Below are positions 14,614-61,004 of a DNA stretch of 64,000 nt, piece by piece. The notes under the pieces are model-generated. The model did no database searches. It had not been told where the DNA came from and saw nothing but the letters and a program-made list of their open reading frames with translations. Both the position numbers and the translations under genes were made by a program. How positions within the stretch are numbered: position 1 is the stretch's first letter; each line of letters begins with the position of its first letter. Origin of the DNA: Flavobacteriales bacterium (lineage in GTDB: Bacteria; Bacteroidota; Bacteroidia; Flavobacteriales_F; PHOS-HE28); NCBI GenBank assembly GCA_044346705.1, contig JBIIYP010000001.1, positions 148,634 to 212,633 on the forward strand, given 5' to 3'.

Positions 14614-16260
14614 ATGATCCGCACCATCCTGTTCATTTCGAGCCTTTCCATCATGGTGTGCTCGTTGCAGGGGCAGCCGTTCGCCATCGGCTCCACGAAC
14701 CTCACGTTCACCGATCCTTCACGAGGCGGGCGCTCGATCCCGTGCGAGGTGTACTACCCTGCGACCACGGCCGGGTCCAATGTTCCGGTCGCGGCCGGTG
14801 CCTTCCCGGTGCTGGCCTTCGGGCATGGCTTCGTGATGACGGTGGGCGCTTATGCGAACGTTCGGCAGGCCTACGTACCCGAAGGGTTCATCCTCGTCCT
14901 TCCCACCACCGAGGGCGGTTTCTCACCGAGCCATGGCAACTTCGGACTGGACCTGGCCTTTGCCATTGCGTCGATGCAGGCCGAGGGTGTGGCACCGGCC
15001 TCGCCCTTCTTCGGCCATGTCCTTTCAACATCGGCGGTGATGGGCCATTCCATGGGGGGCGGTGCCTCGTTCCTGGCCGCAGGTGGGGCTCCGCAGATCA
15101 CCACGGTGGTGAACTACGCCGCGGCGGAGACGAATCCTTCGGCCATTGCGGCCGCAGGCAACGCGACCATGCCAACGCTCGTGTTCTCCGGCAGCCAGGA
15201 TTGTGTGGTGCCGGCGGCGGGCAACCAGCAGGACATGTACACCGCTTCCGCCTCCACGTGCAAGGCGTTCGTGAGCATTACAGGTGCCGGCCATTGCCAG
15301 TTCGCGAACAGCAACTTCAACTGTACGTTCGGTGAAACGACCTGTGGAGGTGCCGGTGGTCTTAGCCGGGCTCAGCAGCAGGACGCTGCACAGGACCTCA
15401 CGCTGCTCTGGCTGAAGCGTTACTTGAAGGATGATCTCACCGCAGGCGTCGCCTTCGCTGATTCACTGGTGCTGTCCGCTCGGATCACGTCGCAGTCGAC
15501 CTTCACGGATTGCCCGCCGATCGTGGTGCGCGTGAATGTGAAGGCGTTGCTCGATGGCCCCTACAACGAACAGACCGACCTGATGGGTGATGCCTTGCGT
15601 TCGCAGAACCTGATCCCGGCCTCCGAACCGAATACCGCTGCGGGTTTCGTGCATGTCGGCGGCGTTGTGGGGGAAGCGTTGGATCCGGCCTTGCTCACGG
15701 TCACAGGTTCCGATGCGGTGGTGGACTGGGTCTTCGTGGAAGTGCGTGATGCGGGAACGGGCGTTCAGGTGCTGACCACGGCGAACGGCCTGGTGCAGCG
15801 CGATGGCGACATCGTGGCGGCGAACGGGGCCGTGCTGACCTTCAGTGCGCCGCCGGGCAACTACCGGATCGCAGTGCGCCACCGGAACCATTTGGGCTTG
15901 ATGAGTAATGCGGCTTTCTCCTTGACCCGCGACCCCATCGCCATCGACCTGTCCGATCCGCTCACGATCGCTTACGGCACGGAGGCGCGCCGCTTGCGCG
16001 ATGGCAAAGCCCTGCTCTGGGCCGGTAACGCGCGTTTCGATGCGGAGCTGAAGTACACCGGTGCGCAGAACGACCGCGATCCCATGTTGCAGGTGATCGG
16101 CGGCATCGTGCCCACGCTCACGGTCACCGGTTATTTCACGGAGGATGTGAACCTGGACGGGGTGGTGAAGTACGCCGGCGCGGTGAACGATCGCGATCGC
16201 CTGCTGCATTCCATCGGCGGTGTGGATCCCGTGGTGGTGCGGCAGGAGCAGCTTCCGTAA
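14614..16260 (+). CDS. Secreted alpha/beta hydrolase (esterase/lipase-like, GHSMGG nucleophile elbow) with about 250-aa C-terminal module ending EQLP
   Basis: Signal peptide; GHSMGG motif; C-terminal module shared with ORF 44158-46755. Confidence 0.7.
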   Translation: MIRTILFISSLSIMVCSLQGQPFAIGSTNLTFTDPSRGGRSIPCEVYYPATTAGSNVPVAAGAFPVLAFGHGFVMTVGAYANVRQAYVPEGFILVLPTTEGGFSPSHGNFGLDLAFAIASMQAEGVAPASPFFGHVLSTSAVMGHSMGGGASFLAAGGAPQITTVVNYAAAETNPSAIAAAGNATMPTLVFSGSQDCVVPAAGNQQDMYTASASTCKAFVSITGAGHCQFANSNFNCTFGETTCGGAGGLSRAQQQDAAQDLTLLWLKRYLKDDLTAGVAFADSLVLSARITSQSTFTDCPPIVVRVNVKALLDGPYNEQTDLMGDALRSQNLIPASEPNTAAGFVHVGGVVGEALDPALLTVTGSDAVVDWVFVEVRDAGTGVQVLTTANGLVQRDGDIVAANGAVLTFSAPPGNYRIAVRHRNHLGLMSNAAFSLTRDPIAIDLSDPLTIAYGTEARRLRDGKALLWAGNARFDAELKYTGAQNDRDPMLQVIGGIVPTLTVTGYFTEDVNLDGVVKYAGAVNDRDRLLHSIGGVDPVVVRQEQLP

Positions 16261-36866: not shown

Positions 36867-37658
36867 GTGCTCCGTGACCTGTTCGCGATCGCCGCCGTGG
36901 CCATTGCCGTTGCGCTTCACGCGCAGTGCATCAGCACTTTCCCTGCCACCGAGAATTTCACCGGTGGCACCGTGGGAACCCCCGGCACCTTGATCACCGG
37001 CTGGTCGAACCTCTCCGGAGATGACCTGAACTGGTTCGTGGACAACAACGGAACACCGACCGCGAACACCGGGCCCATCGGTGATCACACGAGCAACAAC
37101 ACCTTGGGCAAGTGCATGTATGCGGTGTGCACGGGTGCCACCGCGACACCCACTAACGTCGCCATCCTGAAAAGCAATTGCTACACCGTCCACCCAGACC
37201 AACCCTGACTCACCTTCTGGTACAGCATGCGCGGAACGCAAATGGGCTCGCTGTTCCGCGATGTGAACGTGGGTGGTGTGGTGATCCTTGGTGTGTGGTC
37301 CGTGTGCGTCGACCAGGGCTTGAAGTGGAAACAGGGCTGGCTGGACCTCGCGCCGTACTTCGGACAGGCCGATGTGCGCTTCCGCTTCCGCGCGGTGACC
37401 GGCTCGGGAGAGCACAGTAACATGGCCTTCGATGATGTGGTGGTGAAGAGCATGGTGGCCGTTCTGGGCTGCCCGGACGTGAACGCGAGCAACTACAACA
37501 GCGCGGTGAACATCAATGATGGATGCTGCTCATACGCTTGTTCTGTGGGATTCGAACGGGTCACCCTCAACATCATACGCAACAATATGGTCAGCCGGGT
37601 CTTCGCAGCGATCAACCGCAAGGAGCCATGCCTGGACCTCCACAAATACGCAGCCTGA
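36867..37658 (+). pseudogene. MAM-domain secreted protein interrupted by in-frame TGA (37206-37208) at the conserved Cys position
   Basis: ORFs 36771-37208 and 37227-37658 are in the same frame; ...CYTVHPDQP-TGA-LTFWYSMRGTQMGSL matches the MAM C.L.FWY.M.G core with stop replacing Cys; GTG start 36867 gives good signal peptide. Confidence 0.55.
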
Positions 37659-38176
37659 CTTGCACAGGTCTTAGAATACAGGCAGGCGAATGGCACGTAT
37701 GACCATCGTTCGGCCGGACGAGGCACGGACGAAGAGCGGATACTGGAACGAAGTATCCAAAGGGAGGAGCAACGAAGTATGGCCGAAGTAGAGACTTGTG
37801 CCCGAAGGGTCGGTCCGCCGTGCGGCGCAGCGATGACGCCGGAGTGAGGTACTTTGAGGTACGCGTAAGGCTCACCCGCCAAGGCCTGAGGCCTTGGTAT
37901 CGAAGTGGAGGGTCGTCCCTCTTCGTTCGTACCGATCGAACCTTCGCGAATGGGGTCGAGCACACGCAAGAAGGCTGTCTTTGAAGGAGCCATGCGGCTA
38001 GACATGTCCCGATATCCGGACCGGATGGTTTCGATCCCCGATCAAGCGTAACCACGTGGAAGATCTCACCGAGAACAAGGCGCATCTCGGCGAGCAGATG
38101 CATGAGCCCAGCAGTGCACTAACTCCGTTGTTCCATAACGAAATAGGTTGACAGCAGCACGGGTATCGCACTATCC

Positions 38177-40495
38177 TTGCGGACAATTACACCCAACCTA
38201 GCTGACATGAGAATCACGACCAACCTGTGCAAGAGCTTTATCCTCATGGGGATCATGCTCGTGTTGTTCCCCTCGCAGCGCATGCGCGCTGCATGTTTTA
38301 CCAGCGTGGTCGATCCCTCCTGGCACATGATCAACGGCGCCACGGCCGCTGACCTGCACGCTGCCGCGCCAAGCGGTATGGCCCCGTCCTCCATGATGGT
38401 GGTTTGCTCGGCCGGCCCGGCGTCCACAACGCCGACGTTGTGCGTGAACACGGCACTTACGCCCATCACGCACACCACGTCCGGTGCCACGGGTATCGGC
38501 TCGCCCACGGGACTTCCTGCCGGTGTAACGGCGAGTTGGGTGGCGGACGTGATCACGATCACCGGGACACCCACGGCTGACGGCACTTTCAGCTACAGCA
38601 TCCCCCTTGATGGCGGCTGCGGCTTCGTGAGCGCTGTGGGAACCATCACCGTGGTTGCGACCGGCACGGTGGGTGCGGCTTCTTCGAGCCCCTCCCTGTG
38701 CATCAACACGCCGTTGACGGACATTACGCACAGCACCTCAAGCGTAACTGGTATCGATACTCCTTCAGGATTGCCTCCCGGTGTTACCGCCACGTGGTCG
38801 AACCAAACCATTACGATCAGTGGTACACCCACCACTGCCGGTACATTCAACTACACGATCCCGGTCATCGGTTGCAGTGGTCCAACGGCTACCGGAACCA
38901 TTACGGTGATCATGCTTCCCAATGTCATTTACGCTGTTACCAATGCCAGCTGCGTTGGATTTGGGAATGGCGCCATCGATCTGTCGGTCGATGGGTCCGG
39001 TCCATTCTCCTTCCTGTGGTCGCCCGGTGCCCAAACCACCGAAGATCTGGGCGGCATTGTTGACGGTAGTTATGCGGTTACCGTGACCGGTGCAGGTGGT
39101 TGTTCCACCGATGTTCCGGGTATGGTGGTAGGCAGCTCCGGTACGCTGCTCGGTGCTTTCCAGGATGATGACGGCGATGCGTATGGAGATCCATTGGTGA
39201 ACACTACCTATTGCTCGGCGGCCAGTGAACTGGATTCCACGAATTTGATCGTCGATGGTAGCTTCGAGGATCAGGCCTCCCTGCAGAACCTTCCCGGATA
39301 TGTGCCGGCAAGTGCACCGAATGAAGTATGGGGTGCAGGCTGGAACAACTGGGGCTGGACCTCTTGGCAGGATATTACCGGAAGCGGTGCATGGACCGGT
39401 GGTGCCATCGCCCGTACCGAGGAGTTCGCTGCCGGCTGGAAACGAGCCCATACGGGGAATGTTTTCGGTATCATCAAGGACAATTTCAGCATGAGCCAGA
39501 CGTTCACGGTCGCTAGCGGAGGTGACGGTATCGGGAAATTGAATTGGTATGATGCCAATCGTGCCAGCTGGAGGGAACACGACTGGTTTGGACGCGATAA
39601 CACCTATGACGTTACGCTTACGGACGACCTGGGTAATGTTCAACAACTAGGTACCTACACCAGTAAGGTGGCAGGTGGCACGAATTATAGCACGCCTCCC
39701 GGTGGATACGGCTGGTGGACAACGCAGGGCAAGGATTTCTGGTTCGCCCGCGCCAGCAATGACTTCACCCTCGTGGCCGGCAGAACCTACACCCTGTCGT
39801 TCAACAGTCTGACGACGAACGATGACCGCACCACCTTCCTGGATGACATCATGATCGTCAGGCGCGCACTGAATACGGTGCCTGCCGGCTATGTGACCGA
39901 TTCCTCCGACTGCAATGATGCCAGCGCGGCCGTGAATCCCGGAGCGACAGAGGTGTGCAACGGTGATGACGACGACTGCGACGGCTATATCGATGATGCG
40001 GATCCTTCGGTAACTGGTCAGGATACCTGGTACGCGGATGTGGACGGTGATGGGTTAGGCTTCGGTACCAGCACAGGCCTCGCTTGCACCGCTCCGAACC
40101 CAGGCGATGTGACCAACAGCACGGACAACTGCCCCACCGTTCCCGGTGTGATCGGTTCTAGCTGCGATGACAATGATCCGGCCACCGAGAACGATGTTCT
40201 GAACCCCAACTGCGTCTGCGCCGGTGAGCCGATCGACGTGAACACGGGTTTGACCAGCCTCAGCATTCCCGGCGTTCGTGTGTATCCGAACCCGGCGAAC
40301 GACCAAGTGACCATCGAAGGATCAATTTCCGGCCGTATCGCCGTGATCGATCTGCAAGGCCGCACAGTGATCATCAGCACGACCAATGGTGCTGCGTTGG
40401 TGCGCATCGATGTTTCAGCGATCGCTGCGGGCAGCTACATGCTGCGCGCGTTGGACGGTACCGGCGGCATGCTGGGCCGGTTCACGAAGGAGTGA
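38177..40495 (+). CDS. Large secreted adhesin-like protein: He_PIG Ig-like repeats, SprB repeat, MopE-like Cys-rich metal-binding motif, T9SS CTD
   Basis: Three LP.GVTA.W....ITI.GTPT..GTF.Y.IP repeats; C.G.GNGAIDLSV...WSPG...DL..G.Y.VTVT...GC SprB repeat; DCND....VNPGA.EVCNGDDDDCDG; C-terminal VRVYPNPANDQVTIE... Confidence 0.75.
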   Translation: MRTITPNLADMRITTNLCKSFILMGIMLVLFPSQRMRAACFTSVVDPSWHMINGATAADLHAAAPSGMAPSSMMVVCSAGPASTTPTLCVNTALTPITHTTSGATGIGSPTGLPAGVTASWVADVITITGTPTADGTFSYSIPLDGGCGFVSAVGTITVVATGTVGAASSSPSLCINTPLTDITHSTSSVTGIDTPSGLPPGVTATWSNQTITISGTPTTAGTFNYTIPVIGCSGPTATGTITVIMLPNVIYAVTNASCVGFGNGAIDLSVDGSGPFSFLWSPGAQTTEDLGGIVDGSYAVTVTGAGGCSTDVPGMVVGSSGTLLGAFQDDDGDAYGDPLVNTTYCSAASELDSTNLIVDGSFEDQASLQNLPGYVPASAPNEVWGAGWNNWGWTSWQDITGSGAWTGGAIARTEEFAAGWKRAHTGNVFGIIKDNFSMSQTFTVASGGDGIGKLNWYDANRASWREHDWFGRDNTYDVTLTDDLGNVQQLGTYTSKVAGGTNYSTPPGGYGWWTTQGKDFWFARASNDFTLVAGRTYTLSFNSLTTNDDRTTFLDDIMIVRRALNTVPAGYVTDSSDCNDASAAVNPGATEVCNGDDDDCDGYIDDADPSVTGQDTWYADVDGDGLGFGTSTGLACTAPNPGDVTNSTDNCPTVPGVIGSSCDDNDPATENDVLNPNCVCAGEPIDVNTGLTSLSIPGVRVYPNPANDQVTIEGSISGRIAVIDLQGRTVIISTTNGAALVRIDVSAIAAGSYMLRALDGTGGMLGRFTKE

Positions 40496-40509
40496 TCAAC
40501 GGCAATTGA

Positions 40510-40548
40510 AAAAGCCCCTGGCCGTCGAACGGTCAGGGGCTTTTTGTT
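40510..40548 (+). terminator. Rho-independent terminator
   Basis: aaaaagcccctggccgtcgaacggtcaggggctttttgttg. Confidence 0.7.
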
Positions 40549-40753
40549 GTGCGCTACCGACACCGATCGCTTCAGCACACCGGTGCCTTCAACGATCGGG
40601 ACCCGATACTGGTCATTATCGGTGGCGCTGTTCCGAACAGCACCCATCAGGAGCAGGTGCCTTGACAAGACCGGATCGCATTTTTACGGACAGGCCCGGC
40701 GCTTTGGTCCGGGCCTGTCGCATCTTTGGGCACCAACAGCAACTTCCACGGCC

Positions 40754-42805
40754 ATGCGTACATCACTTCTCCTCTCCTTACTGACCATCTGGGGCTCGGC
40801 CTTCGCACAATGCGGTGCGGGCGAGGTCGAGGTCGAGATCGCGGTTTCCACTGATGGGTACGGCTATGAGACCTATTGGGAACTTCTGCCGAACGGGTCT
40901 GCATGCGGCAGCGGCACCCTCTTCGCTGGAGGCAATCCTGCCGTAGGCTGCAACGGCGCGGGACTTCAGGCACAGCTTCCGGGTGGCTACGGCAACAACC
41001 TGGTGATCACCGAAGGGCCTTGGTGTCTCACCGCCGGTGGGTCCTACGCCATCTTCTGGGCCGATGATTGGGGCGATGGCGGGGTCTCCTTCGACGTCAT
41101 CGTCGATGGGGTGAGTTCGGCCCAGTTCGTGGGTGTCGGCGGTAGCCCGGCCGAGACGTTCACCTTCCTCGCCCAGCAGCCCGTGGACCATGATCTGGAG
41201 TTGACCCTGTTGAACACCCCGCTCTATGTGTTCGAAGGCGGGGACCTGTTCATCACTGGCGATATGAAGAACGCCGGGATGCTTACCGTGAACAGTTGCG
41301 AACTGAGCTATACGGTGGATGGTGGGGCTCCTGTTGTTGCCGCTCTGAACGGTCTCAACCTTGCCCCGGGTCTCACCTTGGCTTTTGAGCATCCGGTCCC
41401 TTGGGCCTCGGTCGGTGTTGGAATGCACGTCATCAGCGTTCAGTCGCTTACGGTGAACGGGAACCCGGATGGCAATACCATCAATGACGTGGCGACCATG
41501 GATACCAAGGTCCAGGCACCGGTGCCGAACATCATTGACCAGTACCTGCAGGCCGCACCAACGGTGAACGTGATCGCCGATTCGGACCAGGATCTTCTGG
41601 TGCCGCGAGACCTGGATTTCCACCCTGACATGGACCGCAATGAGCTGTGGGTCATCAACAAGGACGTGGAAAGCTCCGGCGGGAGCACGGTCACCTTTTT
41701 CGGTCCTGGCGCCGCGGATATGGAATGGATGTGGAAGCGCGATCCGAACGCCTGGCACTTCATGAGCCTGCCCAGCGGCATCGCCATGGGCGATAACAGG
41801 TTCTTCTCCACGAGTCCCGGCATCTTCGATGCCAACCAGAACGGGGGGGATCCTTTCACGGGCCCGACCTTGTGGAGCGCGGACACATCGATCTATGCGG
41901 CCACCATCTATGGTCCGTTGGGAAGCCACTTCGACATGCTGCATGTCACGCCGAACAGCCAGGGCATCGCGCATGAGCGCTGGAACAAGTATTGGGTCGT
42001 GGACGGGTTCAATGGCGATGTTGTCATGCACGATTTCGCTGGCGATCATGGTCCGGGCAACAGCTACCATGGGAACGCCATCATCAGGCGCTACGCTGAT
42101 TTCACCATCACCAAGGACCCCAATGACCACATCGTGAGCCACACCGTGCTGGACAAGGCAACGGGCTGGTTGTACGTGGTGGATCATGGCGGACAGCGGG
42201 TGCTGCGGTTGGATACCCGCACGGGCTCGGTGAGCGGTCCGGGAACCTATGGCCCTTGGGAGAGCTATGTGGAGTACAGCATGGTCTCCGGTTACGATTG
42301 GGACGTGGTGGCGAGCACCGGACTGGTGGAGCCTGCCGGAATTGAGGTGATGGGGGATCGCCTGCTGGTGAGCGACCATGCCAACGGCCACATCGTGATG
42401 TATGATATCTCGGTCGACCCGGTGGTGGAGCTCGGACGGATCCTGACCGGTTCGGCGGGTATCATGGGCATCCGTGTGGGGCCTGATGGGCGGATCTGGG
42501 CGGTCAATGCCACCACGCACCAGTTGCTCCGCGTGGACCCCGCCGCGATCACAGGTGTGCCTGAGCTTCAAGTCCTCACTCCACGCGCTTATCCGAATCC
42601 TGCCCAGGATCAGCTTCAGTTCGACGGCATGGAGCTCGCGAATGGTTCCGTATTGGAGGTCGTGGACATGGCGGGCAGGGTTGTGGCCAGGCCCACGTAC
42701 CGGGGTGCCGGGCGTTCCATTGATGTGTCCATGCTGCATCCCGGGCCGTACCTCCTTCGTGCATCCGGTGGTTCGCAGCACCTCAGGTTCGTCATTCAGC
42801 GCTGA
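40754..42805 (+). CDS. Secreted protein with T9SS CTD (unknown function)
   Basis: Signal peptide MRTSLLLSLLTIWGSAFAQ; C-terminal AYPNPAQDQLQFDG...GPYLLRASGGSQHLRFVIQR. Confidence 0.65.
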   Translation: MRTSLLLSLLTIWGSAFAQCGAGEVEVEIAVSTDGYGYETYWELLPNGSACGSGTLFAGGNPAVGCNGAGLQAQLPGGYGNNLVITEGPWCLTAGGSYAIFWADDWGDGGVSFDVIVDGVSSAQFVGVGGSPAETFTFLAQQPVDHDLELTLLNTPLYVFEGGDLFITGDMKNAGMLTVNSCELSYTVDGGAPVVAALNGLNLAPGLTLAFEHPVPWASVGVGMHVISVQSLTVNGNPDGNTINDVATMDTKVQAPVPNIIDQYLQAAPTVNVIADSDQDLLVPRDLDFHPDMDRNELWVINKDVESSGGSTVTFFGPGAADMEWMWKRDPNAWHFMSLPSGIAMGDNRFFSTSPGIFDANQNGGDPFTGPTLWSADTSIYAATIYGPLGSHFDMLHVTPNSQGIAHERWNKYWVVDGFNGDVVMHDFAGDHGPGNSYHGNAIIRRYADFTITKDPNDHIVSHTVLDKATGWLYVVDHGGQRVLRLDTRTGSVSGPGTYGPWESYVEYSMVSGYDWDVVASTGLVEPAGIEVMGDRLLVSDHANGHIVMYDISVDPVVELGRILTGSAGIMGIRVGPDGRIWAVNATTHQLLRVDPAAITGVPELQVLTPRAYPNPAQDQLQFDGMELANGSVLEVVDMAGRVVARPTYRGAGRSIDVSMLHPGPYLLRASGGSQHLRFVIQR

Positions 42806-42815
42806 GCCAGCATCG

Positions 42816-44090
42816 ATGATCTTACCGTCCATGCGCACGAACGTGAAGGTGCTTGTGGTGCTGTGTGCCGCGCTCGCTGCTGGAACGGCCATGGCGCAGA
42901 CATGGGAGGTCTTCGACATGAATTCGGCAGGACTGCCCAGCAACACGGTGCGTGCCTTGGCGGTGGCTCCGAACGACGATGTCTGGGTGGGTACCGAGTT
43001 CGGCCTGTGCCTGTTAGACGGATCCAACTGGCAGGTCTTCCAGACGGGTTCATCCGGCCTGCCTGACAACGATGTACGTTCCCTTGCGGTGGATGACACC
43101 GGTGCGGTCTGGATCGGTACGCTCGGGGGGCTGGCCTGCTACGACCAAGGCGCGTGGGAGGTTTACACCACAGGGAATTCAACACTGCCCGAGGATTACA
43201 TCCGCAGCCTCGAGATCGCCCCTCAGGGTGGGGTCTGGGTGGGCACCGTGGGCGGCTTGTCGTGGTTCGATGGCGATACCACCTGGCATCATTACAACGA
43301 CACGCCGGGGAGTTACGCTGGTCTTCAGTTGCCCGGGAACAACATCGCAGCGCTTTGCGCACGGTCTGATGGGGCGCTGTGCATCGGCACGGTGAACGCG
43401 GGCTTCACCTACCTCACGGATTCCACGGTCACCGTCTACACGACCTTCTCCAACGGCCTTCCGGACAACACCGCCTTGGGCGTGGCCTTGGATGGGCAGG
43501 GTTCGCGGTGGCTGGCCTGCCCCGCCGGAGCCCTGCTCAACCATGCCGGTGACCTTGTCGGGGGTGCTTGGGTACAGTTCAGCACCGTGAACTCGTTGTT
43601 GCCGTCCAATTCCCTGACCTGCATCGAAGTGGATGGGTGGGACCGGAAGCTGATCGGCAACCAGATCTCCGGGTTCACCATCTTCCAAGGCTTCAGCAGC
43701 TTCACCACCTACACCATGCAGAACTCCGACCTTCCGGGTGATGAGGTCCTGAGCCTCGCCTTGGACGGGGCCGGAAATGTATGGATCGGCACCTCCAGCG
43801 GGGGGGCGGCGCGCTTCGGCTACGCCGTCGGCCTCGAGGAGCAAAAGGCCAATGACGGAATGGTGGTGTTCCCGAACCCGGTGACGGACGATCTGCGATT
43901 CGTGCACCCGGCCGCAGATGGCGGCCGGTATCGGCTTCTGGACCTTTCCGGGCGTGTTCTGTCGATGGGGCCTTCTTCCTCCGGGACCACCGTAGTGGAC
44001 CTGCGTGATGTGGCCACCGGCACCTATGTGTTGGAGGCCTTCGATGCTGGCGCACAGCGCCTTGCATGCCGTAGGATCCAGCGTCTTTGA
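42816..44090 (+). CDS. Two-component-regulator-propeller (Reg_prop) repeat protein with T9SS CTD
   Basis: Repeated LP.N.V..LA.D..G..WIGT..GL....G..W blades; signal peptide; C-terminal VVFPNPVTDDLRF... Confidence 0.7.
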   Translation: MILPSMRTNVKVLVVLCAALAAGTAMAQTWEVFDMNSAGLPSNTVRALAVAPNDDVWVGTEFGLCLLDGSNWQVFQTGSSGLPDNDVRSLAVDDTGAVWIGTLGGLACYDQGAWEVYTTGNSTLPEDYIRSLEIAPQGGVWVGTVGGLSWFDGDTTWHHYNDTPGSYAGLQLPGNNIAALCARSDGALCIGTVNAGFTYLTDSTVTVYTTFSNGLPDNTALGVALDGQGSRWLACPAGALLNHAGDLVGGAWVQFSTVNSLLPSNSLTCIEVDGWDRKLIGNQISGFTIFQGFSSFTTYTMQNSDLPGDEVLSLALDGAGNVWIGTSSGGAARFGYAVGLEEQKANDGMVVFPNPVTDDLRFVHPAADGGRYRLLDLSGRVLSMGPSSSGTTVVDLRDVATGTYVLEAFDAGAQRLACRRIQRL

Positions 44091-44157
44091 ACCTCTCTGG
44101 TTTGACGCTGGGGAAGTGCCGGGTTAACTTGGCGTTCCTTTAATCCCCCCCCGCTCC

Positions 44158-46755
44158 TTGCTTGTACGTTCCACCTTGTTGGCCGTGATGGTCACTGTCA
44201 GCCTTTCCGATGCATTGGGTCAGTGCACCGTTTCCGGCATCACTACGCCGAACGGAACCAACACCAGCGCGACCAGCTGCCTCTGCGACACGGCCGGGCA
44301 GACCGACTGTGATCTTCGGCCTGATGTAATGATCGCATGGAGCGCTCTCCAGACCTACGCATCCGGCCCCAGTGAGTACCCGCAGGTCTGCAGCGGAGGC
44401 TGCTCAGGGAACGATGGCCGGTTGAGGGTGACCGGGGCAACGCCGAACATCGGCAATGGGCCCTTGAATTTCCGTGGCGTGGACAAGGATGGTAAACGCT
44501 GGTTCATCTGCGGAACGGACACCTTCAGTATCGTGGACCCCAATTCGACACAGACCTTCAGTTGCCCGAACAGCGGCCTGACCAAGCAATTGGTGGTGCA
44601 GCGGGTGTACAGGAAGGTGGGAACCAGCATGCGCTTCACGGAGCGGTTCGCCGGCACCATGACCTATCACCCTTCACACGGCCACAATCACGTGGATGAT
44701 TGGGTGACGTTCAGCCTGCGACTCGCGATCGCCAATGAGCCCAACCCGTTGAATTGGCCCATTGTAGGTACGGGTGCCAAGGTCGGCTTCTGCCTGATGG
44801 ACTATTTCTCATGCACCAGCGCCAGCGGCAATGGACATTGCCGTAATGATCACATCTACAACCAGGGCACCGTGCTCAACCAGCAGTCCCAGTTCCAGAA
44901 TTTCGGCCTGGGTGGACAGGCCTATAACTGCAGCCCGGTCAGCCAGGGCATCAGCGCCGGATGGGAGGATGTGTACAGCGAAAGCCTCGATGGCATGTGG
45001 ATCAACATCCCACCGGGTACCTGCAATGGCAGCTATTATATCGTGGCGCAGGTGGATCCGTTGAACAACTTCCTGGAAAGCAACGAGAACAACAACTGGA
45101 CGGCGATACCGTTCACGCTGACCCAGCAGGCCCCTGCGAACAGTGGTGGAACATGCGGCATCATCTCGGACCGTGAGCCGGTGCTCTGCAGCGGGGAGCA
45201 GGTGGTGCTCACTTGCCAGAACGCAGGTTACACCTACCTGTGGAGCACCGGAGCAACGACGCGCAGCATCACCGTGGATCAGGGTGGGAACTACACCGTG
45301 ACCGTGACCAATCCGTGCGGTACCATGACCTCCGCGCCATACACGGTAACGGTGTTGAGCGCAACGGCCCCGGTGACGACAGGTGCGGTGCTTTCCGCGC
45401 CGGGGACGGCCACGTTGACGGCCACAGGCACGGATCTTCATTGGTTCGCACAGCAGGCCGGGGGAACCGAGATAGGTGTAGGCACCTCGTTCGTGACCCC
45501 AACGCTATACCAGACCACCACCTACTGGTGCGAAGCACGGGCCATGCAACAAGGGGTTTCCGCCTATGTGGGAAAGCCAACGAACACTGGTTCGGGCGGG
45601 TACAGCAGCAATGATGAATACCTCGTTTTCGATGCCTACAAGGACCTGGAGATCAACTCCGTTCGCGTGTACACCACGACGGCCGGCAACCGTACGTTCC
45701 AGGTGCTGGCGGAGGATGGCTCCTTCATTGCCCAGGCCACGGCCTTTGTGAGCACGGGGAATACGCGCGTGACCTTGAACCTGCAGGTGCCTCAAGGGAA
45801 CAACCTGCGGCTGTATGTCACCAATTCCTTGCGCAGCCTGTATCGGAACAGCAGTTCTTCAGGTGTGAACTATCCCTATACCGTTCCCAACATCCTCACG
45901 ATCAGAACGAGCAGCGTGGGTGTGGCGGCTTATCCCTATTGCTACGATTGGGAGATCAGCACACGGGACAAGGTGTGCGCCAGCGCTCGTGTTGCCGCGA
46001 CGGCAACGGTGAACGGCACCCTCGCGCTGGGCCTCTCCGTCTGGCTCGAAGGAGCCTATGTTCAAGGCAGCGGACAGATGCGTGACGACCTGCGCGGTCA
46101 AGGCCTGATGCCTTCACAGGAGCCCTACACGGCGATGGGCTTCACCCAGACCGGCGGTGGGGGGGGCGAGACGATAGCGCCTGCACTGCTCAGCACGACC
46201 GGCGCATTGGCACCTGTGGATTGGGTGCTTGTTGAGCTGCGCAATGCTGTCGATCCCTCGGTCATCGTGGCCACACGCTCTTGCGTGGTTTTGCGGAACG
46301 GCCAGGTGGTATCCCCAGCAGGTGGTGCCGTCCAATTCGTTGGCTCGGTGGGCCCCTACCATGTGGCCATCAGGCACCGCAACCATTTGGGATGCATGAC
46401 CGCTGCAGCGGTCTCCTTGAGCCCCATCGTCACCACCATCGACCTCAGGCAGGCGTCCACGGCCACTTGGGGAACGGACGCCCGCCGCACCTCCGGTTCC
46501 GCGATGGTGCTTTGGACCGGCAACGTGGTGATGAACAATGCGCTCCGGTACACAGGTGCGAGCAACGATCGCGATCCGATCCTTCAGGCCATTGGCGGCT
46601 CGGTTCCGACCGGCATCCTGTCCGGATATGTCACCACCGACGTGAACCTGGACGGACTAACGAAGTACACAGGTGCTTCCAATGACCGTGACCCGATCCT
46701 GTTGAACATCGGAGGGTCGGCTCCCACGAGCATCCGGTTGGAGCAATTGCCTTGA
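44158..46755 (+). CDS. Secreted multidomain protein with lysyl-oxidase-like (LOX) copper amine oxidase domain, Ig-like domains and C-terminal EQLP module
   Basis: YHPSHGHNHVDDW (His-rich Cu site like WHSCHQHYH), KVGFCLMDYFSC (like K.SFCLED.C), ISAGWEDVYSESLDGMWINIPPGTCNGSYYIVAQVDPLNNFLESNENNN (like GCYDTY...CQWIDITDV.PGNY.L.V.VNP...ESD..NN). Confidence 0.65.
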   Translation: MLVRSTLLAVMVTVSLSDALGQCTVSGITTPNGTNTSATSCLCDTAGQTDCDLRPDVMIAWSALQTYASGPSEYPQVCSGGCSGNDGRLRVTGATPNIGNGPLNFRGVDKDGKRWFICGTDTFSIVDPNSTQTFSCPNSGLTKQLVVQRVYRKVGTSMRFTERFAGTMTYHPSHGHNHVDDWVTFSLRLAIANEPNPLNWPIVGTGAKVGFCLMDYFSCTSASGNGHCRNDHIYNQGTVLNQQSQFQNFGLGGQAYNCSPVSQGISAGWEDVYSESLDGMWINIPPGTCNGSYYIVAQVDPLNNFLESNENNNWTAIPFTLTQQAPANSGGTCGIISDREPVLCSGEQVVLTCQNAGYTYLWSTGATTRSITVDQGGNYTVTVTNPCGTMTSAPYTVTVLSATAPVTTGAVLSAPGTATLTATGTDLHWFAQQAGGTEIGVGTSFVTPTLYQTTTYWCEARAMQQGVSAYVGKPTNTGSGGYSSNDEYLVFDAYKDLEINSVRVYTTTAGNRTFQVLAEDGSFIAQATAFVSTGNTRVTLNLQVPQGNNLRLYVTNSLRSLYRNSSSSGVNYPYTVPNILTIRTSSVGVAAYPYCYDWEISTRDKVCASARVAATATVNGTLALGLSVWLEGAYVQGSGQMRDDLRGQGLMPSQEPYTAMGFTQTGGGGGETIAPALLSTTGALAPVDWVLVELRNAVDPSVIVATRSCVVLRNGQVVSPAGGAVQFVGSVGPYHVAIRHRNHLGCMTAAAVSLSPIVTTIDLRQASTATWGTDARRTSGSAMVLWTGNVVMNNALRYTGASNDRDPILQAIGGSVPTGILSGYVTTDVNLDGLTKYTGASNDRDPILLNIGGSAPTSIRLEQLP

Positions 46756-46944
46756 TGGGGTCCATGGTGCCGGGACGATCTGTTCCCCGTCGTTGGTATA
46801 GCGCTGAGGCCGGTAGACCAAGCGGCGCACTCGGGCTGAACGGTGATGCTCTGCTGAGGGCCCGCGGATGGAACCACGTGAGCCGGTGATCAGGCTACAT
46901 GTCTTATCATTGTCCGTAGCCTATCCAACGCCCCAACTGGAGTC

Positions 46945-48516
46945 ATGTCAAAGAATGTTGCGTGGAATGGCCTCGCCAAGGACCTCTCCGCGTCCGTGGT
47001 GGTGTTGCTGGTGGCCTTGCCGCTGTGCTTGGGCATCGCTTTGGGAAGCGGCGCACCGCTGATCTCCGGATTGATCGCGGGCGTTGTCGGTGGGGTGGTC
47101 GTAGGTTTTCTCAGCGGGTCCCCTTTAAGCGTCAGCGGGCCTGCGGCGGGTCTCACGACGATCGTGGCCGCGGCCATCACGAAGCTTCCTTCGTACGAGG
47201 CGTTCGCTTTGGCGGTGATGCTGGCAGGCGCATTCCAAGTGCTGCTGGGGGTGGTCAGGGCCGGGGTGGTAGGGGACTTCATTCCGAATTCGGTGATCAA
47301 GGGCATGCTCGCCGCCATCGGGCTCATCCTCATCCTGAAGCAGTTCCCCCACCTGGTCGGCTATGACGCGGACTTCGAAGGGGATGAGAGTTTTCTCCAA
47401 TCCGACAGCGAGAACACGCTGACCGAGTTGTAACATGCCATGGGTTTCTTCTCACTGCCGGCCGCGCTGATCGGCGTGGTGTCGATCCTTTTGCTGTTGC
47501 TGTGGGAACGCCCCTTCATCCGTTCGCACCGGTTCTTCGCCCTGGTTCCAGGTCCCTTGGTGGTGGTCGCCGTCGGCATCCTGATGCAGGTAGTGATGGC
47601 GCGCGTGCCGGAGCTGGCTCTATCCGCACAGCATATGGTGGATATTCCGAACATCGTGGGTGTCACCGGGCTGGTCTCGGTGTTGCGTCCACCGGATCTT
47701 TCCATGCTATGGCTGCCTGCTGTCTGGGTCTCTGCGGCGACCCTCGCCATAGTCGCAAGCCTGGAGAGTCTCTTGGGCGTTGAAGCCGTGGACAAACTCG
47801 ACCCGTTGAAACGTGTAACGCCTTCGAACCGGGAACTGATGGCCCAAGGCGCGGGGAACATGGTCAGCGGTATGTTGGGAGGGTTGCCTGTGACCTCCGT
47901 TGTGGTGCGCAGTTCGGCGAATGTCCAGGCCGGAGCGGTCTCGAAGCGTTCCACCATCCTGCACGGTGTGCTCATGCTGTTCGGTGTGCTTCTCGTGCCC
48001 ACGGTGATCGACATGATCCCCTATGCCGCACTGGCCGCCATCCTTATGGTCACCGGATACAAGCTGGTGAAGGTGAACACCTTCAAGGAATTCCATGCGA
48101 AGGGGTGGGAGCAGTTCATCCCGTTCGTGGTCACGATCCTGGCGATCCTCTTTTCGGACCTGTTGACCGGGATCGTGATCGGCATCTTCGTCGGTTTGTT
48201 CTTCATGATGCGGAGCAATTTCCGCACTACGGTGCTGTTGGTGAAGGACGGGGAGAATCATCTTCTGAGGTTGCGGAAGGATGTATCGTTCCTGAACAAG
48301 CCGATCGTGAAGCAGCGATTGGCGTCATTGCCGAACGGGTCCTACATCCTGATCGATACCAACCCCGCGGATTTCATCGACCAGGATGTGCTTGAGGTGA
48401 TCAGGGAGTTCATCGTCAGCGCACCGGCGCGGAACATCCGCGTGGAGGTGAAGCGCTCGATGCAGGGAAGCATACATCCCATGCTGGTGATGAGCGAACA
48501 ACCACACGTTTCATGA
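46945..48516 (+). pseudogene. SulP-family anion (sulfate/bicarbonate) transporter with STAS domain, interrupted by in-frame TAA at 47431-47433
   Basis: ORFs 46945-47433 and 47440-48516 share a frame; combined about 520 aa matches SulP length and TM order; ...NTLTEL-TAA-HAMGFFSLPAALIG continuous. Confidence 0.55.
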
Positions 48517-49145
48517 AGACGCACGAACGCCTCTTGTTGGAGAACAAGGCCTGGGCCCAGGGGCGTGTCCAGGACGACCCGCTGTTCTTCAAGCGCCTGG
48601 AGAGCCTGCAGACCCCGGAGTTCCTGTGGGTGGGGTGCAGTGATAGCCGTGTGCCGGCCAATGAGATCACAGGCACGCAGCCCGGTGAGATCTTCGTTCA
48701 CCGCAACATCGCGAACATGGTCGTGCATACCGACCTCAACCTGCTTGCGGTGCTGGAGTATGCCGTGCATCACTTGAAGGTGAAGCACATCATCGTGTGC
48801 GGGCACTACGGTTGCGGTGGCGTGAAGGCGGCGATGACGCACACGTCCCTCGGCATCATCAACAAGTGGCTGCGCAACATCAAGGATGTTCAACGGTTCC
48901 ATGCGGCCGAGCTCGAAGCCATCACCAATGAGGAGCAGCATATCGACCGGCTGGTGGAGCTTAACGTCGTGGAACAGGTCACGAACCTTGCCAAGACGTC
49001 CATTGTACAGCGTGCCTGGCACCAGGAGCAACGACCGCACCTGCATGGCTGGGTCTATGGGCTGAAGGTTGGGCTGATCAGATCCGTGTTCGACATGCCT
49101 CCGAACAGCCCATTGGACCCGCTCTATGTGTTCGACAATGTGTGA
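48513..49145 (+). CDS. Beta-class carbonic anhydrase
   Basis: CSDSR, HYGCGG zinc-ligand motifs; classic SulP-CA pairing. Confidence 0.85.
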   Translation: MKTHERLLLENKAWAQGRVQDDPLFFKRLESLQTPEFLWVGCSDSRVPANEITGTQPGEIFVHRNIANMVVHTDLNLLAVLEYAVHHLKVKHIIVCGHYGCGGVKAAMTHTSLGIINKWLRNIKDVQRFHAAELEAITNEEQHIDRLVELNVVEQVTNLAKTSIVQRAWHQEQRPHLHGWVYGLKVGLIRSVFDMPPNSPLDPLYVFDNV

Positions 49146-55316: not shown

Positions 55317-56723
55317 ATGAGCAAGATCAAGTTCGGTACCGACGGATGGCGTGCCATCATCGCCGATGAGTTCACCGTGGATAACGTGGCCCGGGTGAGC
55401 GTGGCCACGGGCAATTGGGTGAAGCAACGCTTCCCCACGGAGGCCTCCATCGTGGTGGGCCACGACTGCCGCTTTGCCGGTGAGCTCTTCGCCGAGACGG
55501 TGGCCAGGGTGTTCATCGCGCAAGGCATCCGTGTCCACCTGGCCAAGGGTTTCGTGAGCACACCGATGATCAGCCTCGGCGCGTTCCGGTTGAAGGCCAG
55601 CATGGGGGTGATCATCACCGCGAGCCACAACCCCCCGGCCTACAACGGATTCAAGCTCAAGGGCTCCTACGGCGGCCCGCTGATCCCAGAACACGTTCAG
55701 GAGATCGAGGACATCATTCCCGCTGTGCATGGCCTGGACCTCGCGGAGGTGGACCTGAAGAAGGCCGAAGCGGAGGGCATGCTGAAGTACGTTGATCTGG
55801 AGTCGATGTACGTGGAGCATGTAGAGCGGAACTTCGACCTGGAGAGCATCCGCAAGAGCGGGCTGCGCCTGGCCTATGATGCGATGTACGGTGCCGGCCA
55901 GAACGTGATCCCCAGGATCCTGCCGGACGCCGCGCTCCTGCATTGCACCAACGACCCCTCGTTCCGTGGTCAGGCCCCCGAGCCCATCCACAAGAACCTC
56001 ATCGAGTTCAGTGAACTGATCAAGAAAGGGGGCATTGACTGTGGCCTGGCCACCGATGGCGATGCGGACCGCATCGGTCTGTACAACGGCAAGGGCGAGT
56101 TCGTGGATTCGCATCACCTCATCCTGCTGCTGATCCACTATCTGGTGAAGTACAAGAAGTTCAGTGGCAAGGTGGTGGTGGCCGTCAGCACCACGCCGAA
56201 AGTGGAGAAGATGTGCCGCCACTACGGGCTGGAGTACCAGGTGGTGAAGATCGGCTTCAAGTGGATCTGCGGCATCATGATCAATGAGGATGTGTTGCTG
56301 GGTGGAGAGGAGAGCGGCGGCATCGCCATCAAAGGCCACATCCCTGAACGGGACGGTATCTGGATGGGGCTCACCATCTGGGAATACATGGCCAAGAGCG
56401 GCAAGGACCTCGACGCGCTCGTTCAAGAGGTCTACGCCATCGTAGGACCCTTCAGCTATGACCGCAGCGACCTGCACATCAGCGAAGCGTTGAAGCAGGA
56501 CGTGCTGGCCAAGTGCACCAGCGGTGCCTTCACCAGGTTCGGGGACCTTGAAGTGCGCCGGTTGGAGACCATCGACGGCTGGAAGTACCATTTCGACAAC
56601 GACCAGTGGCTCATGATCCGCGCAAGCGGCACCGAGCCGGTGCTGCGCACCTACGCCGAGAGCAACAGCCTGGAGAACGCCCGAAGGATCCTGGCGGCGT
56701 GCAAGGAGGCCATCGGGGCCTAG
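55317..56723 (+). CDS. Alpha-D-phosphohexomutase family (phosphoglucomutase/phosphomannomutase)
   Basis: MSKIKFGTDGWRA, active site TASHNP, GLATDGDADR metal loop. Confidence 0.85.
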   Translation: MSKIKFGTDGWRAIIADEFTVDNVARVSVATGNWVKQRFPTEASIVVGHDCRFAGELFAETVARVFIAQGIRVHLAKGFVSTPMISLGAFRLKASMGVIITASHNPPAYNGFKLKGSYGGPLIPEHVQEIEDIIPAVHGLDLAEVDLKKAEAEGMLKYVDLESMYVEHVERNFDLESIRKSGLRLAYDAMYGAGQNVIPRILPDAALLHCTNDPSFRGQAPEPIHKNLIEFSELIKKGGIDCGLATDGDADRIGLYNGKGEFVDSHHLILLLIHYLVKYKKFSGKVVVAVSTTPKVEKMCRHYGLEYQVVKIGFKWICGIMINEDVLLGGEESGGIAIKGHIPERDGIWMGLTIWEYMAKSGKDLDALVQEVYAIVGPFSYDRSDLHISEALKQDVLAKCTSGAFTRFGDLEVRRLETIDGWKYHFDNDQWLMIRASGTEPVLRTYAESNSLENARRILAACKEAIGA

Positions 56724-59700
56724 TCCTTCACGAAGGGCATGCGCTCCAGTACAGCGCCCTCACTACCGAGCACCTGCAGCGTGTAATGGCCTGCTGCCAT
56801 GTTGTGGAGGTGCAGGGTCACCACGCCCGGGTGCTGGATAGGGGTGGGGCGTGACAGCAGGATGCGACCAAGATCGTCGGTCACCAAGACCTGTTGTGCA
56901 CCCTGTGTCCGGGTAAGGTCGACCATCAGGTCCTCTTGCACCGGGTTCGGATACAGCACGATGGTCGTGTAGCGTTGGATGGCCACGATGGGCGAATGTT
57001 CGCTCGTTCCATCGAGGTCCACCAGGTTCAACCGGTAATAGGCGAGGCCCGGAAGTGGACCTTGGTCCCTGTAGCGATAGTTGATCGTTGCGGTGCTCAG
57101 GCCGGCTGCCGGAAGACTGCCGATGGGCACAAAGAGCCGTGCGTCGGTGGAGCGTTGAACCTCGAAGACGGCACTGTTCGATTCCGATGCCGTGACCCAC
57201 TCCAGCAGGTTGTCCTCCCCTTCCGGTCGGCCATCGAGCGAGACCAGTTCGACGGGCAGCACACCGATGTCCCCCACACCATTGGCGTAGCTGTAGAACC
57301 ACCTGCTGTAGCGTTGTCCATCGATCAGTTTGGCCAGGTCATATTCCTCCCTGACACGCCACTTGTAGCGCAGCTGACCGGGCAGCTTGTAGACCAGTTC
57401 CTTGATCTCGGCGCCGTTCAAGGGCAGGGTCGTCCAAGAGGCGCCGAACCCGTTTGATGCCACACTGGTGGTGATCGGGTTGCCCAGGAAGGGCTGGCCT
57501 TGGAAGATGATCTCGTAACGTAGCCGCGACCTGCAGCGATGAACAGGATTGCGCGCCCGGTGACCGATGCCGAAATGGTCCGGATCGCTGAAATCCATGC
57601 CGTTGGTGCTCATCGGTGTCACGAGATCGGAATCGTACTGGCGCGTGAGGCGCCCGAGGCCGAGCGCATTGTTGCCGCGGTGCCAGAAGGTGGCGCCTTC
57701 TGCAATGAACGCGGGGGCCGCGAGCGGAGCACCGAGGAGCACATCGCTGTAACCGTCGCCGTCCAGGTCACCCCCACCGCTGACGGCTGCGCCGGATCGG
57801 GCTCCCGCCAGGTTGTTCTCAAGAACATCATGGCCTGCGGCGGTGAGCCCTGTGGGAGAGCCACGGTACACATACACCAAACCTTCCGCCGGTTGCCCGT
57901 TGGCGCCAAGCGGTGATCCAATGATCACATCGGCGTACCCATCGCCATTAACGTCACCGGCCTCCGCAACGGACCGGCCCATGGCGCTGCCCGGCAGGTT
58001 CCGCTGAAGGATGATCGTGATCGCGGCCTGGGTGCCCGAGGCAGAGCCGTTGAAGATGAAGGCGGCCCCCTCATCGGCTTCGCCCACGGTCGATTCCCAT
58101 TGATCGGCACCTACGACCACATCGAAGTATCCATCGCCATTGATGTCGCCCGCACCGGATACGCTTGCACCGAAGCCTGCACCGGCCTGGTCGGCTTCGA
58201 GGCGGCGGGCATAAGGCACTACGATACCGGTGGTCGAGCCCAGGTAAACGAACGCAAGCCCTTCATTGAGCTGGCCGTTCGAACCCAGCCGCGCTCCGAC
58301 GATCACATCGCTGAATCCATCCCCGTTCACATCGCCCGCGGTGTTCACTGAACCACCGAACAGGCATGACGCAGGAGCTTCCGATAGGATGAGCGAAGGG
58401 ATGTTGGAAGGTCCGCTCGGGGATCCATGGAAGAGGAAGGCCTGACCGCTGCCGGGAGCACCGATGAGCAGATCACCGAAGCCATCGGTGTTCACGTCAC
58501 CGGCCGGAGCCACGGAGCTGCCGAAAAGCGAGCCTCCCGTTAGCGTTTGGAGGGGCACCGCTGAGAGCCCACCGGGACCGCCCATGTATACGTAAGCGGT
58601 GCCCGTGCCGTCAAGTGGAGCGCCCACGACCACGTCAGCATACCCATCACCGTTCAGATCCCCTGCGCTGGCCACACTGCTGCCGAAGGCCGATCCCGCA
58701 ACGCCGTTCTGGAGGGTGACGGACGGCAGGAAAGAGAGCCCGGTGGCGGAGCCGCAGTGGAGATAGGCCTGCCCGCTGCTTGCAGCTCCCCCGAACGCAC
58801 CGGGCGCACCGAACAACGCATCGGCATACCCATCGCCGTTCACGTCGCCTGCATTCGCCACCGCGGTGCCGAGAACAGCGTTGGTCGCAGCACCGAACCG
58901 CGCAAGTGAACTGGTGGTGGAGGTGCCCACTGCACCACCATGGAACACGGCGGCCGCACCTCCCGAGCCATAGATGCGGGCACCCAGGATAACATCGCTG
59001 TATCCGTCGCCGTTCACGTCGCCGGCAGGGTTGATGCTCTCGCCCAGGTTCGCGCCTGCCGAATTGAGCTCCCATTGCACGGCTGCGGTGGTCGGGATGC
59101 CGGTGGGTGCGCCCAGGTAAAGGCGGACCACCCCTTCCTGAGCCTGGCCGGCGTTGAACAGCGTGGCGCCGACCATCACGTCCGCATACCCATCGCCGTT
59201 CACATCACCGGCCGTGGCCACGCTGCGCCCGAACCATACACCGGCCACGCTGCCGTCCAGCAAGGCGGCGGCCACCGGGTTGATGCCTGCCGGGCAGCCG
59301 TGGAACACACGGGCCGTTCCTTCGGCGAGCTGTCCACCTTGGTTGTCCAAGTACGCGCCCACGATCACGTCGCTGTAACCATCGCCGTTCACATCCCCGG
59401 CCGTGGATACCGACCACCCGAAGGAGCCGTTGTTCACCGTGCTTCCGTAAAGTGTGAGCGAAGGTGAAGGGTTGGGACCTGCGCCCAGCCCCGTGGGGGA
59501 GCCGTGCCAAACGAAGGCTGCTCCGGCATCCGGATTCACGTTCGGGGCATCCGGCGCGCCCACGATCACATCGCTGTATCCGTCGCCGTTCACGTCACCG
59601 GCGCAGGCGAGGCTGCGACCGAAATGCCCGCCCGAGATGTTCCGTTCCAAACGGTGCAGGGGAGCGGGGGCAAGACCGGTGGCGGATCCCAGGTGGAGCC

Positions 59701-60838: not shown

Positions 60839-61004
60839 CGCAGGGGAGGACGATGGAGGTGGGTACATATCGAACAGGACCATATCAAAGCTCGATCGCT
60901 GGCCTTCGGAGGTCAATTTTTTTTGCGGTGCGTGGCCGGGTACCTTTAGGCCTCCGACGCGATCGGGCGGCGATCAGCAAGGGCCGGCCTGCCGTGTTCA
61001 TCTT

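Follow-up and report, generated by a model that had tools for sequence, protein, structure and literature searches.

Does the gene at positions 44158..46755 of a 64,000-nucleotide (nt) stretch of DNA from an uncultured freshwater Flavobacteriales bacterium (GenBank assembly GCA_044346705.1, contig JBIIYP010000001.1, positions 148,634 to 212,633 of the forward strand; this whole stretch is called the window) encode a lysyl oxidase (LOX), and what could such an enzyme do in a host that, unlike animals, has neither collagen nor elastin? An initial annotation, made from the bare sequence, had proposed a LOX-like copper amine oxidase domain within a secreted multidomain protein. [quoted passage not shown] The features of the gene are as follows.

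44158..46755, plus strand: complete, uninterrupted open reading frame (ORF) of 865 amino acids (aa) with a TTG start, from the ORF list; in order, the protein comprises a signal peptide, the LOX-like catalytic domain, two immunoglobulin (Ig)-like domains, a beta-sandwich and a C-terminal 'EQLP' module
44158..44220, plus strand: predicted Sec signal peptide, residues 1-21, MLVRSTLLAVMVTVSLSDALG/QC, read from the sequence (the slash marks the presumed cleavage site)
44221..45135, plus strand: LOX-like catalytic domain, residues 22-326, as judged from an AlphaFold2 (AF2) model, Foldseek, hhalign and Pfam PF01186 (residues 254-321)
44668..44691, plus strand: predicted copper-site motif H171-P-S-H174-G-H176-N-H178, aligned to WHSCHQHYH of LOX and WHDCHRHYH of LOXL2
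44779..44781, plus strand: K208, predicted LTQ lysine, opposite K320 of LOX and K653 of LOXL2, invariant in the family
44974..44976, plus strand: Y273, predicted to be the tyrosine of LTQ and, in the precursor, the fourth metal ligand, opposite Y355 of LOX and Y689 of LOXL2, invariant
45076..45096, plus strand: E307-S-N-E-N-N312-N313, in the alignments the putative counterpart of the structural Ca2+ site of LOXL2 and also a CARDB-like signature
45145..45543, plus strand: two Ig-like domains, residues ~330-400 and 404-462 (Pfam Ig_7 PF19081 at 404-462, E 7.8e-8)
45619..45981, plus strand: middle beta-sandwich, residues ~488-608, PHR-like or carbohydrate-binding module (CBM)-like, ending in a conserved Y-x-Y-D-W-E-(V/I)-S
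46021..46755, plus strand: 'EQLP' C-terminal module, residues ~622-865 (~245 aa)

All the strings quoted in the initial annotation were located in the protein (HPSHGHNHVDDW at residues 171-182, KVGFCLMDYFSC at 208-219, WEDVY at 269-273, WINIPPG...ESNENNN at 281-313, and EQLP at 862-865), and the LOX-like signatures observed are far beyond chance. Pfam PF01186 matched residues 254-321 with 31.8 bits (gathering cutoff 20.4, E 1.4e-7) and was found in 53/53 complete homologues, with a best E of 1.7e-12. This match above the cutoff agrees with the proposed assignment, but it is partial, and it was judged insufficient as a stand-alone test because the matched stretch is also CARDB-like. Profiles built from the family reached further: a profile of 36 homologues hit human LOXL2 (5ZE3, E 2.9e-5; chain positions were converted to UniProt numbering by adding 317). 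A human LOX sequence proved 96-97% identical to real mammalian LOX, and a reference set of 14 authentic vertebrate LOX, LOXL1 and LOXL5 sequences was retrieved and aligned. When a profile of the domain only was compared with this set in hhalign, the probability was 97.5% (E 8.6e-12, 137 columns, residues ~148-323), and one unbroken alignment, beginning at "QRVYRK", took in the His motif, the Lys and the Tyr and reached the domain's end.

The AF2 model of residues 1-331 (predicted local distance difference test, pLDDT, 90.8; predicted template modelling score, pTM, 0.86) was searched against the PDB with Foldseek, where chains A and B of LOXL2 5ZE3 were the sole significant matches (probability 1.00; E 4.4e-6 and 1.1e-5; alignments of up to 288 columns). 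The weak matches included the solved CARDB domain 3IDU, and AA11 lytic polysaccharide monooxygenases (LPMOs) appeared at non-significant values (E 0.19-0.27). By profile and by predicted fold, residues ~22-326 thus read as a genuine but strongly divergent member of the LOX family, and the lysyl-oxidase-type domain proposed at the outset is upheld.

The residues on which LOX chemistry depends are in register. In LOXL2 the metal is bound by His626, His628, His630 and Tyr689, and LTQ is formed from Lys653 and Tyr689 (PMC5899467), while the "copper talon" and K320/Y355 of LOX were described in PMC4448552. In the hhalign alignment, H171/H174/H176/H178 fall on WH289SCH292QH294YH296 of LOX, K208 on K320 and Y273 on Y355; in the profile alignment to LOXL2 5ZE3, Y273 stands opposite Y689, and a weaker stretch of the same alignment places H174/H176/H178 opposite H626/H628/H630 and K208 opposite K653. 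H171, H174, H176, H178, K208, D271, Y273, E307, N312 and N313 are invariant in sets of 36, 53 and 70 homologues spanning 36-87% identity, as are 11 cysteines. Both the copper His cluster (H174/H176/H178) and the LTQ lysine and tyrosine that the initial annotation had postulated therefore hold in alignments and across all 70 homologues. Compared with animal LOX, there is an insertion of ~30 residues between the Lys and the Tyr. The Ca2+ site of LOXL2 consists of Glu722, Asp724, Asn727 and Asn728, together with D549 and L550 (PMC5899467); E307, N312, N313 and L53 are aligned with it and invariant, N309 replaces D724, and D52 is not invariant.

The start codon bears on whether the protein is exported. 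Public gene calls, located via the neighbouring carbonic anhydrase gene, give 855 aa from an ATG at codon 11 and carry the precomputed Pfam tags "Lysyl_oxidase (weak), Ig_7". A TTG start appears preferable because it yields a normal signal peptide (n-region, hydrophobic core, ALG/QC), while the ATG would leave just 11 residues ahead of the conserved Q-C. The family consensus likewise has a hydrophobic leader with an A-x-A end followed by an invariant Q-C, residues 2-19 were modelled as a helix by AF2, and the closest orthologue (locus L001) is also 865 aa long. The same locus was present in at least 23 contigs (63 index blocks) of public metagenomes.

Downstream of the catalytic domain, Ig_7 was detected in 53/53 complete homologues, and the family profile also matches the Ig repeats of GhpA, 9FLP. 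The EQLP module had no match in Pfam or NCBIfam. It consists of a beta-sandwich and two 'DxNxDG..KYTGxxNDRDPIL..GG.VPT' repeats with an R-x-E-Q-L-P-stop end, the terminal x-Q-L-P being almost invariant in the EQLP family, and its predicted fold resembles an X-module/dockerin pair, in which an Ig-like X-module precedes a Ca-binding loop-helix segment that is duplicated. Homologues amount to at least 988 clusters at 90% identity, mostly from Flavobacteriales metagenome-assembled genomes (MAGs), one of them named "hemagglutinin protein". The module is C-terminal to varied domains (multicopper oxidase, PKD, choice-of-anchor J, MopE, GEVED), and in related loci it also ends M36 and M12B metalloproteases. 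A second copy lies in the window itself at 15481-16260, at the C-terminus of ORF 14614..16260 (44% identity over 270 aa). The fusion of the LOX-like domain to Ig-like domains and to an EQLP module is thus confirmed, by Pfam (Ig_7 at 404-462) and by the sharing of the module with this second ORF. The product of ORF 14614-16260, in which the EQLP module is fused to an alpha/beta hydrolase, has Pfam matches of PETase-like, chlorophyllase and dienelactone-hydrolase type and resembles BHET hydrolase only weakly (33.7 bits against a far higher cutoff of 520).

The C-terminus divides the family. The subfamily was scanned in one genome per species (185,579 species) with tblastn confirmation, which gave 547 confirmed loci in species-representative genomes, and the best 80 of these (L-numbered) were compared. 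Their ORFs form two classes, one of ~850-930 aa with an EQLP end and another of ~690-800 aa with a tail of the type IX secretion system (T9SS). By Pfam scan, 30 of the 53 complete members have Por_Secre_tail and the other 23 have the EQLP end; no member carries both C-termini, and none lacks one. Together with the signal peptide and the Ig_7 domain, the sorting domains of these 30 homologues support the secreted, multidomain nature claimed for the protein. At L014 (5872-8471) the LOX-like ORF ends after 589 aa, with an EQLP module ~80 nt further on in another frame; a frameshift is probable, due either to a pseudogene or to a sequencing error.

The gene does not stand alone, and the upstream features, including one remnant, are listed here.

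42831..44090, plus strand: conserved partner gene, 67 nt upstream of the LOX gene, for a secreted Reg_prop beta-propeller (419 aa) that carries a T9SS type-A sorting domain
40754..42805, plus strand: secreted protein with a T9SS type-A tail (TIGR04183 33.5 bits), 25 nt from the propeller gene
40570..40665, plus strand: remnant of the end of an EQLP module, ~31 residues (…HTGAFNDRDPILVIIGGAVPNSTHQEQVP-stop), recognized by tblastn, translation and synteny with L001, L002, L017, L011 and L006
38177..40495, plus strand: protein with a SprB repeat, a MopE motif and a T9SS tail

Four same-strand genes for secreted proteins lie in a row (38177..40495, 40754..42805, 42831..44090 and the LOX gene), the three upstream of the LOX gene all with a T9SS type-A domain. 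The propeller scored 79.7 bits for Reg_prop and 24.2 bits for TIGR04183 (cutoff 23). A homologue of it adjoins the LOX-like gene on the same strand in 64/80 loci, with identities down to ~28%. It is directly upstream in 30/30 EQLP-type loci, while in T9SS-type loci it is directly downstream in 28/41 and upstream in one, and truncated loci have it upstream in five; in several loci the start of the propeller gene abuts or overlaps the LOX stop. Reg_prop repeats were found in 60/60 aligned partners and a detectable T9SS tail in 36/60. As adjacency is kept through both a swap of gene order and deep divergence, we argue that the LOX-like protein and the propeller form a functional pair. The combination of a Reg_prop-type beta-propeller with a T9SS type-A C-terminal domain is shared with PorZ, the T9SS protein for the delivery of anionic lipopolysaccharide, but PorZ has two propellers in ~757 aa and the partner one in ~420 aa, and an identification with PorZ was rejected, its score being sub-threshold (101.6 vs. 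260 bits). Fourteen loci have a homologue of the 40754..42805 product, which in L001, L002, L017, L012, L006 and L011 occupies the same position.

The closest relatives carry a second LOX. In L001, L002, L017, L011 and L006 the gene order is a canonical-type LOX-EQLP gene, the 40754..42805 homologue, the propeller, and the divergent LOX-like-EQLP gene. The canonical-type protein (L001:2-2512) scores 84.5 bits with PF01186, spanning profile positions 4-196 of 204, and has the motifs CHGHAHY, GFKNGFC and CYDQY. Because its similarity to the LOX-like domain of the window is only marginal (pairwise E 0.006), the two are old paralogues. The window is without a canonical-type LOX gene, and the EQLP remnant sits at the corresponding position between two genes; since relatives carry the canonical-type LOX-EQLP gene at this very position, it seems that in the window genome this paralogue was lost by deletion or replacement.

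The reading that best accommodates these observations is that of a secreted, divergent LOX. After Sec export, Cu(II) would most likely be bound by H174, H176 and H178, and the LTQ cofactor would most likely be self-processed from K208 and Y273, as in LOXL2 (PMC5899467). The mature enzyme would then oxidatively deaminate primary amines, whether those of lysine side chains in extracellular proteins and peptides or other ones, to aldehydes, H2O2 and NH3. The Ig-like, CBM/PHR-like and dockerin-like EQLP parts may serve for spacing, targeting and anchoring, as is typical of surface enzymes in Bacteroidota, the EQLP module standing where sister proteins have their T9SS type-A sorting domain, and the co-encoded secreted Reg_prop beta-propeller would work with the enzyme, probably by binding or recruiting something. 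A cross-linking or amine-oxidising role, as first suggested, is a plausible candidate.

Several points weigh against this reading. The PF01186 match covers profile positions 127-194 of 204 only, and CARDB (PF07705) is above its cutoff too (23.9 vs. 22.7 bits, residues 233-315). Single-sequence phmmer searches of PDB sequences, with the whole protein and with the domain, returned nothing relevant. When the alignments were mapped, position by position, onto the disulfides listed in PMC5899467, only two of the five in the catalytic domain of LOXL2 had counterparts (presumably C657-C673 as C212-C228 and C663-C685 as C219-C258), and the cysteine beside the His motif as well as that of 'DCQW' are absent (C625 is S173 and C695 is G279). 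The surroundings of the active site may therefore differ from those of animal LOX. No T9SS sorting domain, type-A or type-B (TIGR04183 / PF18962), was detected in the window protein at E <= 1 with Pfam and NCBIfam. As the protein has no recognised outer-membrane export signal, its surface exposure is argued by analogy, and on that footing it is probably surface-displayed. An invariant lysine, a candidate substrate site, was sought in the 60 aligned propeller partners and none was present, so nothing marks the propeller as a specific substrate.

The five-disulfide pattern is a feature of animal LOX and no requirement for prokaryotic members. Over the same stretch of the window protein LOX outscores CARDB, and the CARDB cutoff is reached by only 8/53 homologues. 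The resemblance to CARDB is nevertheless real and is located only in the C-terminal third of the LOX-like domain (the last ~90 residues). In a census with the domain-only profile, 5,560 representative clusters were matched at E <= 1e-3, 1,931 at 1e-10 and 266 at 1e-30, counts that are not readable as numbers of LOX proteins because proteins with CARDB repeats contaminate them: several strong matches are proteins of 2,000-3,300 aa with 13-25 matches each, at profile positions ~190-279 only. Census matches P0280 and P0285 (JGI metagenomes) combine a divergent LOX-like domain with three CUB domains and proprotein-convertase P-domains; to our knowledge, CUB domains are unusual in bacteria.

What the enzyme would act upon is the point at which the strongest alternative enters. 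For the divergent LOX of the window, candidate roles may include cross-linking of surface or matrix proteins, scavenging of nitrogen from amines and peptides released by the neighbouring proteases, and antagonism by means of H2O2. The extensive targeting apparatus and the propeller's conservation point rather to a macromolecular target to which the enzyme is positioned, the archaeal precedent and the proteases encoded nearby rather away from one. It is possible, and we hold this tentatively, that the protein is an active extracellular amine oxidase of broad specificity whose main task is not cross-linking but nitrogen scavenging or H2O2 antagonism beside EQLP-bearing metalloproteases. Marine bacterial lysine oxidases that produce H2O2 (LodA, AlpP) act in antagonism, and many EQLP-type loci have a neighbouring M36 or M12B metalloprotease bearing the same module. 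The archaeal HTU-LOX of Haloterrigena turkmenica is an active amine oxidase sensitive to beta-aminopropionitrile (BAPN), with a relaxed specificity that includes taurine, histamine, cadaverine, polymyxin and aminoglycosides, for which its authors proposed roles in nitrogen availability or competition (PMC6452851), and it shares its catalytic residues with the LOX-like domain of the window. The sequence, for its part, reveals no substrate, and the strictly conserved pairing with the propeller, together with the large set of Ig, CBM-like and docking parts, hints at a positioned macromolecule more than at free small amines.

A more elaborate scenario, which we consider speculative and rather unlikely as a whole, is a dedicated two-component surface system of uncultured Flavobacteriales. 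In it, the propeller would bind a glycan or protein at the surface, and aldehydes made by the oxidase would allow covalent cross-linking or attachment; an unrecognised C-terminal anchoring or export signal, dockerin-like and with a fixed R-x-E-Q-L-P end, would be embodied in the EQLP module, which replaces the T9SS type-A domain on LOX, M36/M12B proteases, the PETase-like hydrolase and multicopper oxidase.

It is improbable that the LOX-like scaffold serves another chemistry, either as a mononuclear copper oxidase or oxygenase on a non-amine (e.g., a polysaccharide, in an LPMO-like manner) or with a different Lys/Tyr cofactor. Such a shift would fit a clade that is as distant from the canonical-type LOX encoded in the same locus of relatives as from animal LOX, that keeps the disulfide pattern only in part, that has a CBM-like domain and that finds AA11 LPMOs among its Foldseek matches; those LPMO matches are non-significant, though, and the LOX-specific residues are all invariant, including the LTQ lysine, for which a simple copper oxygenase would have no need. 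Hardly credible, finally, is a non-catalytic CARDB-like beta-sandwich for adhesion or metal binding with LOX motifs as relics, for all that the region passes the CARDB cutoff, the C-terminal third of the profile recurs in giant CARDB-type proteins and 3IDU is a weak structural match, since the CARDB-like part is confined to the last ~90 residues with the His cluster, K208 and Y273 partly outside it, LOX scores higher, few homologues match CARDB, the whole-domain fold matches LOXL2 only, and catalytic residues invariant in 70 sequences down to 36% identity are unexpected for relics.

Set beside known systems, the window protein shares with animal LOX and LOXL1-5 a homologous catalytic core (about 16-32% identity), the HxHxH copper site, the LTQ Lys/Tyr, the E..NN of the Ca site in register, and secretion. 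Unlike them it has a longer, Cys-rich N-terminal segment and, instead of a propeptide or SRCR domains, Ig-like, CBM-like and dockerin-like modules. With prokaryotic LOX (Grau-Bove et al. 2015; HTU-LOX) it has the conserved His core and LTQ residues in common; those proteins are almost all single-domain (PMC4448552), whereas the window clade is always multidomain (Ig_7 in all 53 members), T9SS- or EQLP-tailed and propeller-paired. Its layout of signal peptide, catalytic domain, Ig/PKD-like spacers and C-terminal targeting module is that of T9SS type-A cargo, except that the EQLP module takes the place of the sorting domain. The predicted fold of that module is shared with the cellulosomal X-module and type-II dockerin of Clostridium thermocellum CipA (XDoc; 3KCP, 5G5D), but the window host is Gram-negative, the loop is longer (DxNxDG…YTGxxNDRDxIL), and the strictly conserved terminal R-x-[EQ]-Q-L-P is absent from dockerins. 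No dockerin Pfam match was obtained in the window protein at E <= 1; no cohesin partner turned up either, cohesins not having been searched for.

The claim that bacterial LOX homologues are rare was overstated. Besides the 547 subfamily loci found here, close homologues already bear the NCBI name 'lysyl oxidase family protein' (many remoter ones are named for other domains only, i.e., P-domain, GEVED or T9SS), and Grau-Bove et al. 2015 reported LOX with conserved catalytic residues in five bacterial phyla including Bacteroidetes (PMC4448552). The best 80 loci come from Bacteroidota MAGs, mostly "Flavobacteriales bacterium", except for two (L020 and L022) in MAGs labelled 'Candidatus Competibacteraceae' (Gammaproteobacteria); these two have no propeller neighbour and atypical C-termini, and this could reflect mis-binning or horizontal transfer. 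The native function of prokaryotic LOX has been termed "enigmatic" and "cryptic" (PMC6452851), and the literature search found no paper tying bacterial LOX to T9SS or Flavobacteriales biology.

Elsewhere in the window, a SulP-family sulfate permease downstream of the LOX gene is split in two ORFs (46945-47433, 162 aa; 47440-48516, 358 aa), a split that is genuine and no assembly error because it is reproduced in independent metagenome assemblies, and the gene for a beta-carbonic anhydrase (48513-49145) shares 4 nt with the end of the permease. SulP and the carbonic anhydrase were ruled out as functional partners, being kept next to the LOX-like gene in 0/80 loci. A promoter and terminator scan of 37500-47500, of a kind not suited to Bacteroidota promoters, gave results no different from shuffles. 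Region 1-4715, whose GC content is low (32-45% vs. ~62% elsewhere), encodes a tyrosine integrase (3333-4715) and a NADAR-domain protein (2426-3190), and two further ORFs in it had no Pfam match; an integrated mobile element is its probable identity. The whole window yielded no tRNA gene. On the minus strand, 56720-60916 encodes a large repeat protein of 1,398 aa with at least 13 FG-GAP repeats (326.7 bits), which is probably extracellular.

The enzyme family and its presence in Bacteroidota were known and already annotated, and this locus leaves knowledge of the family unchanged; the partner gene and the EQLP module had not been described, and the LOX-propeller cassette together with the hitherto unmodelled module are the parts worth following up. 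The partner in 64/80 loci, the T9SS secretion context and the secreted metalloproteases nearby are leads that single-domain prokaryotic LOX does not offer. If the EQLP module did prove to be an anchoring or export signal, this would bear on how the abundant Flavobacteriales of freshwater and wastewater display their enzymes.

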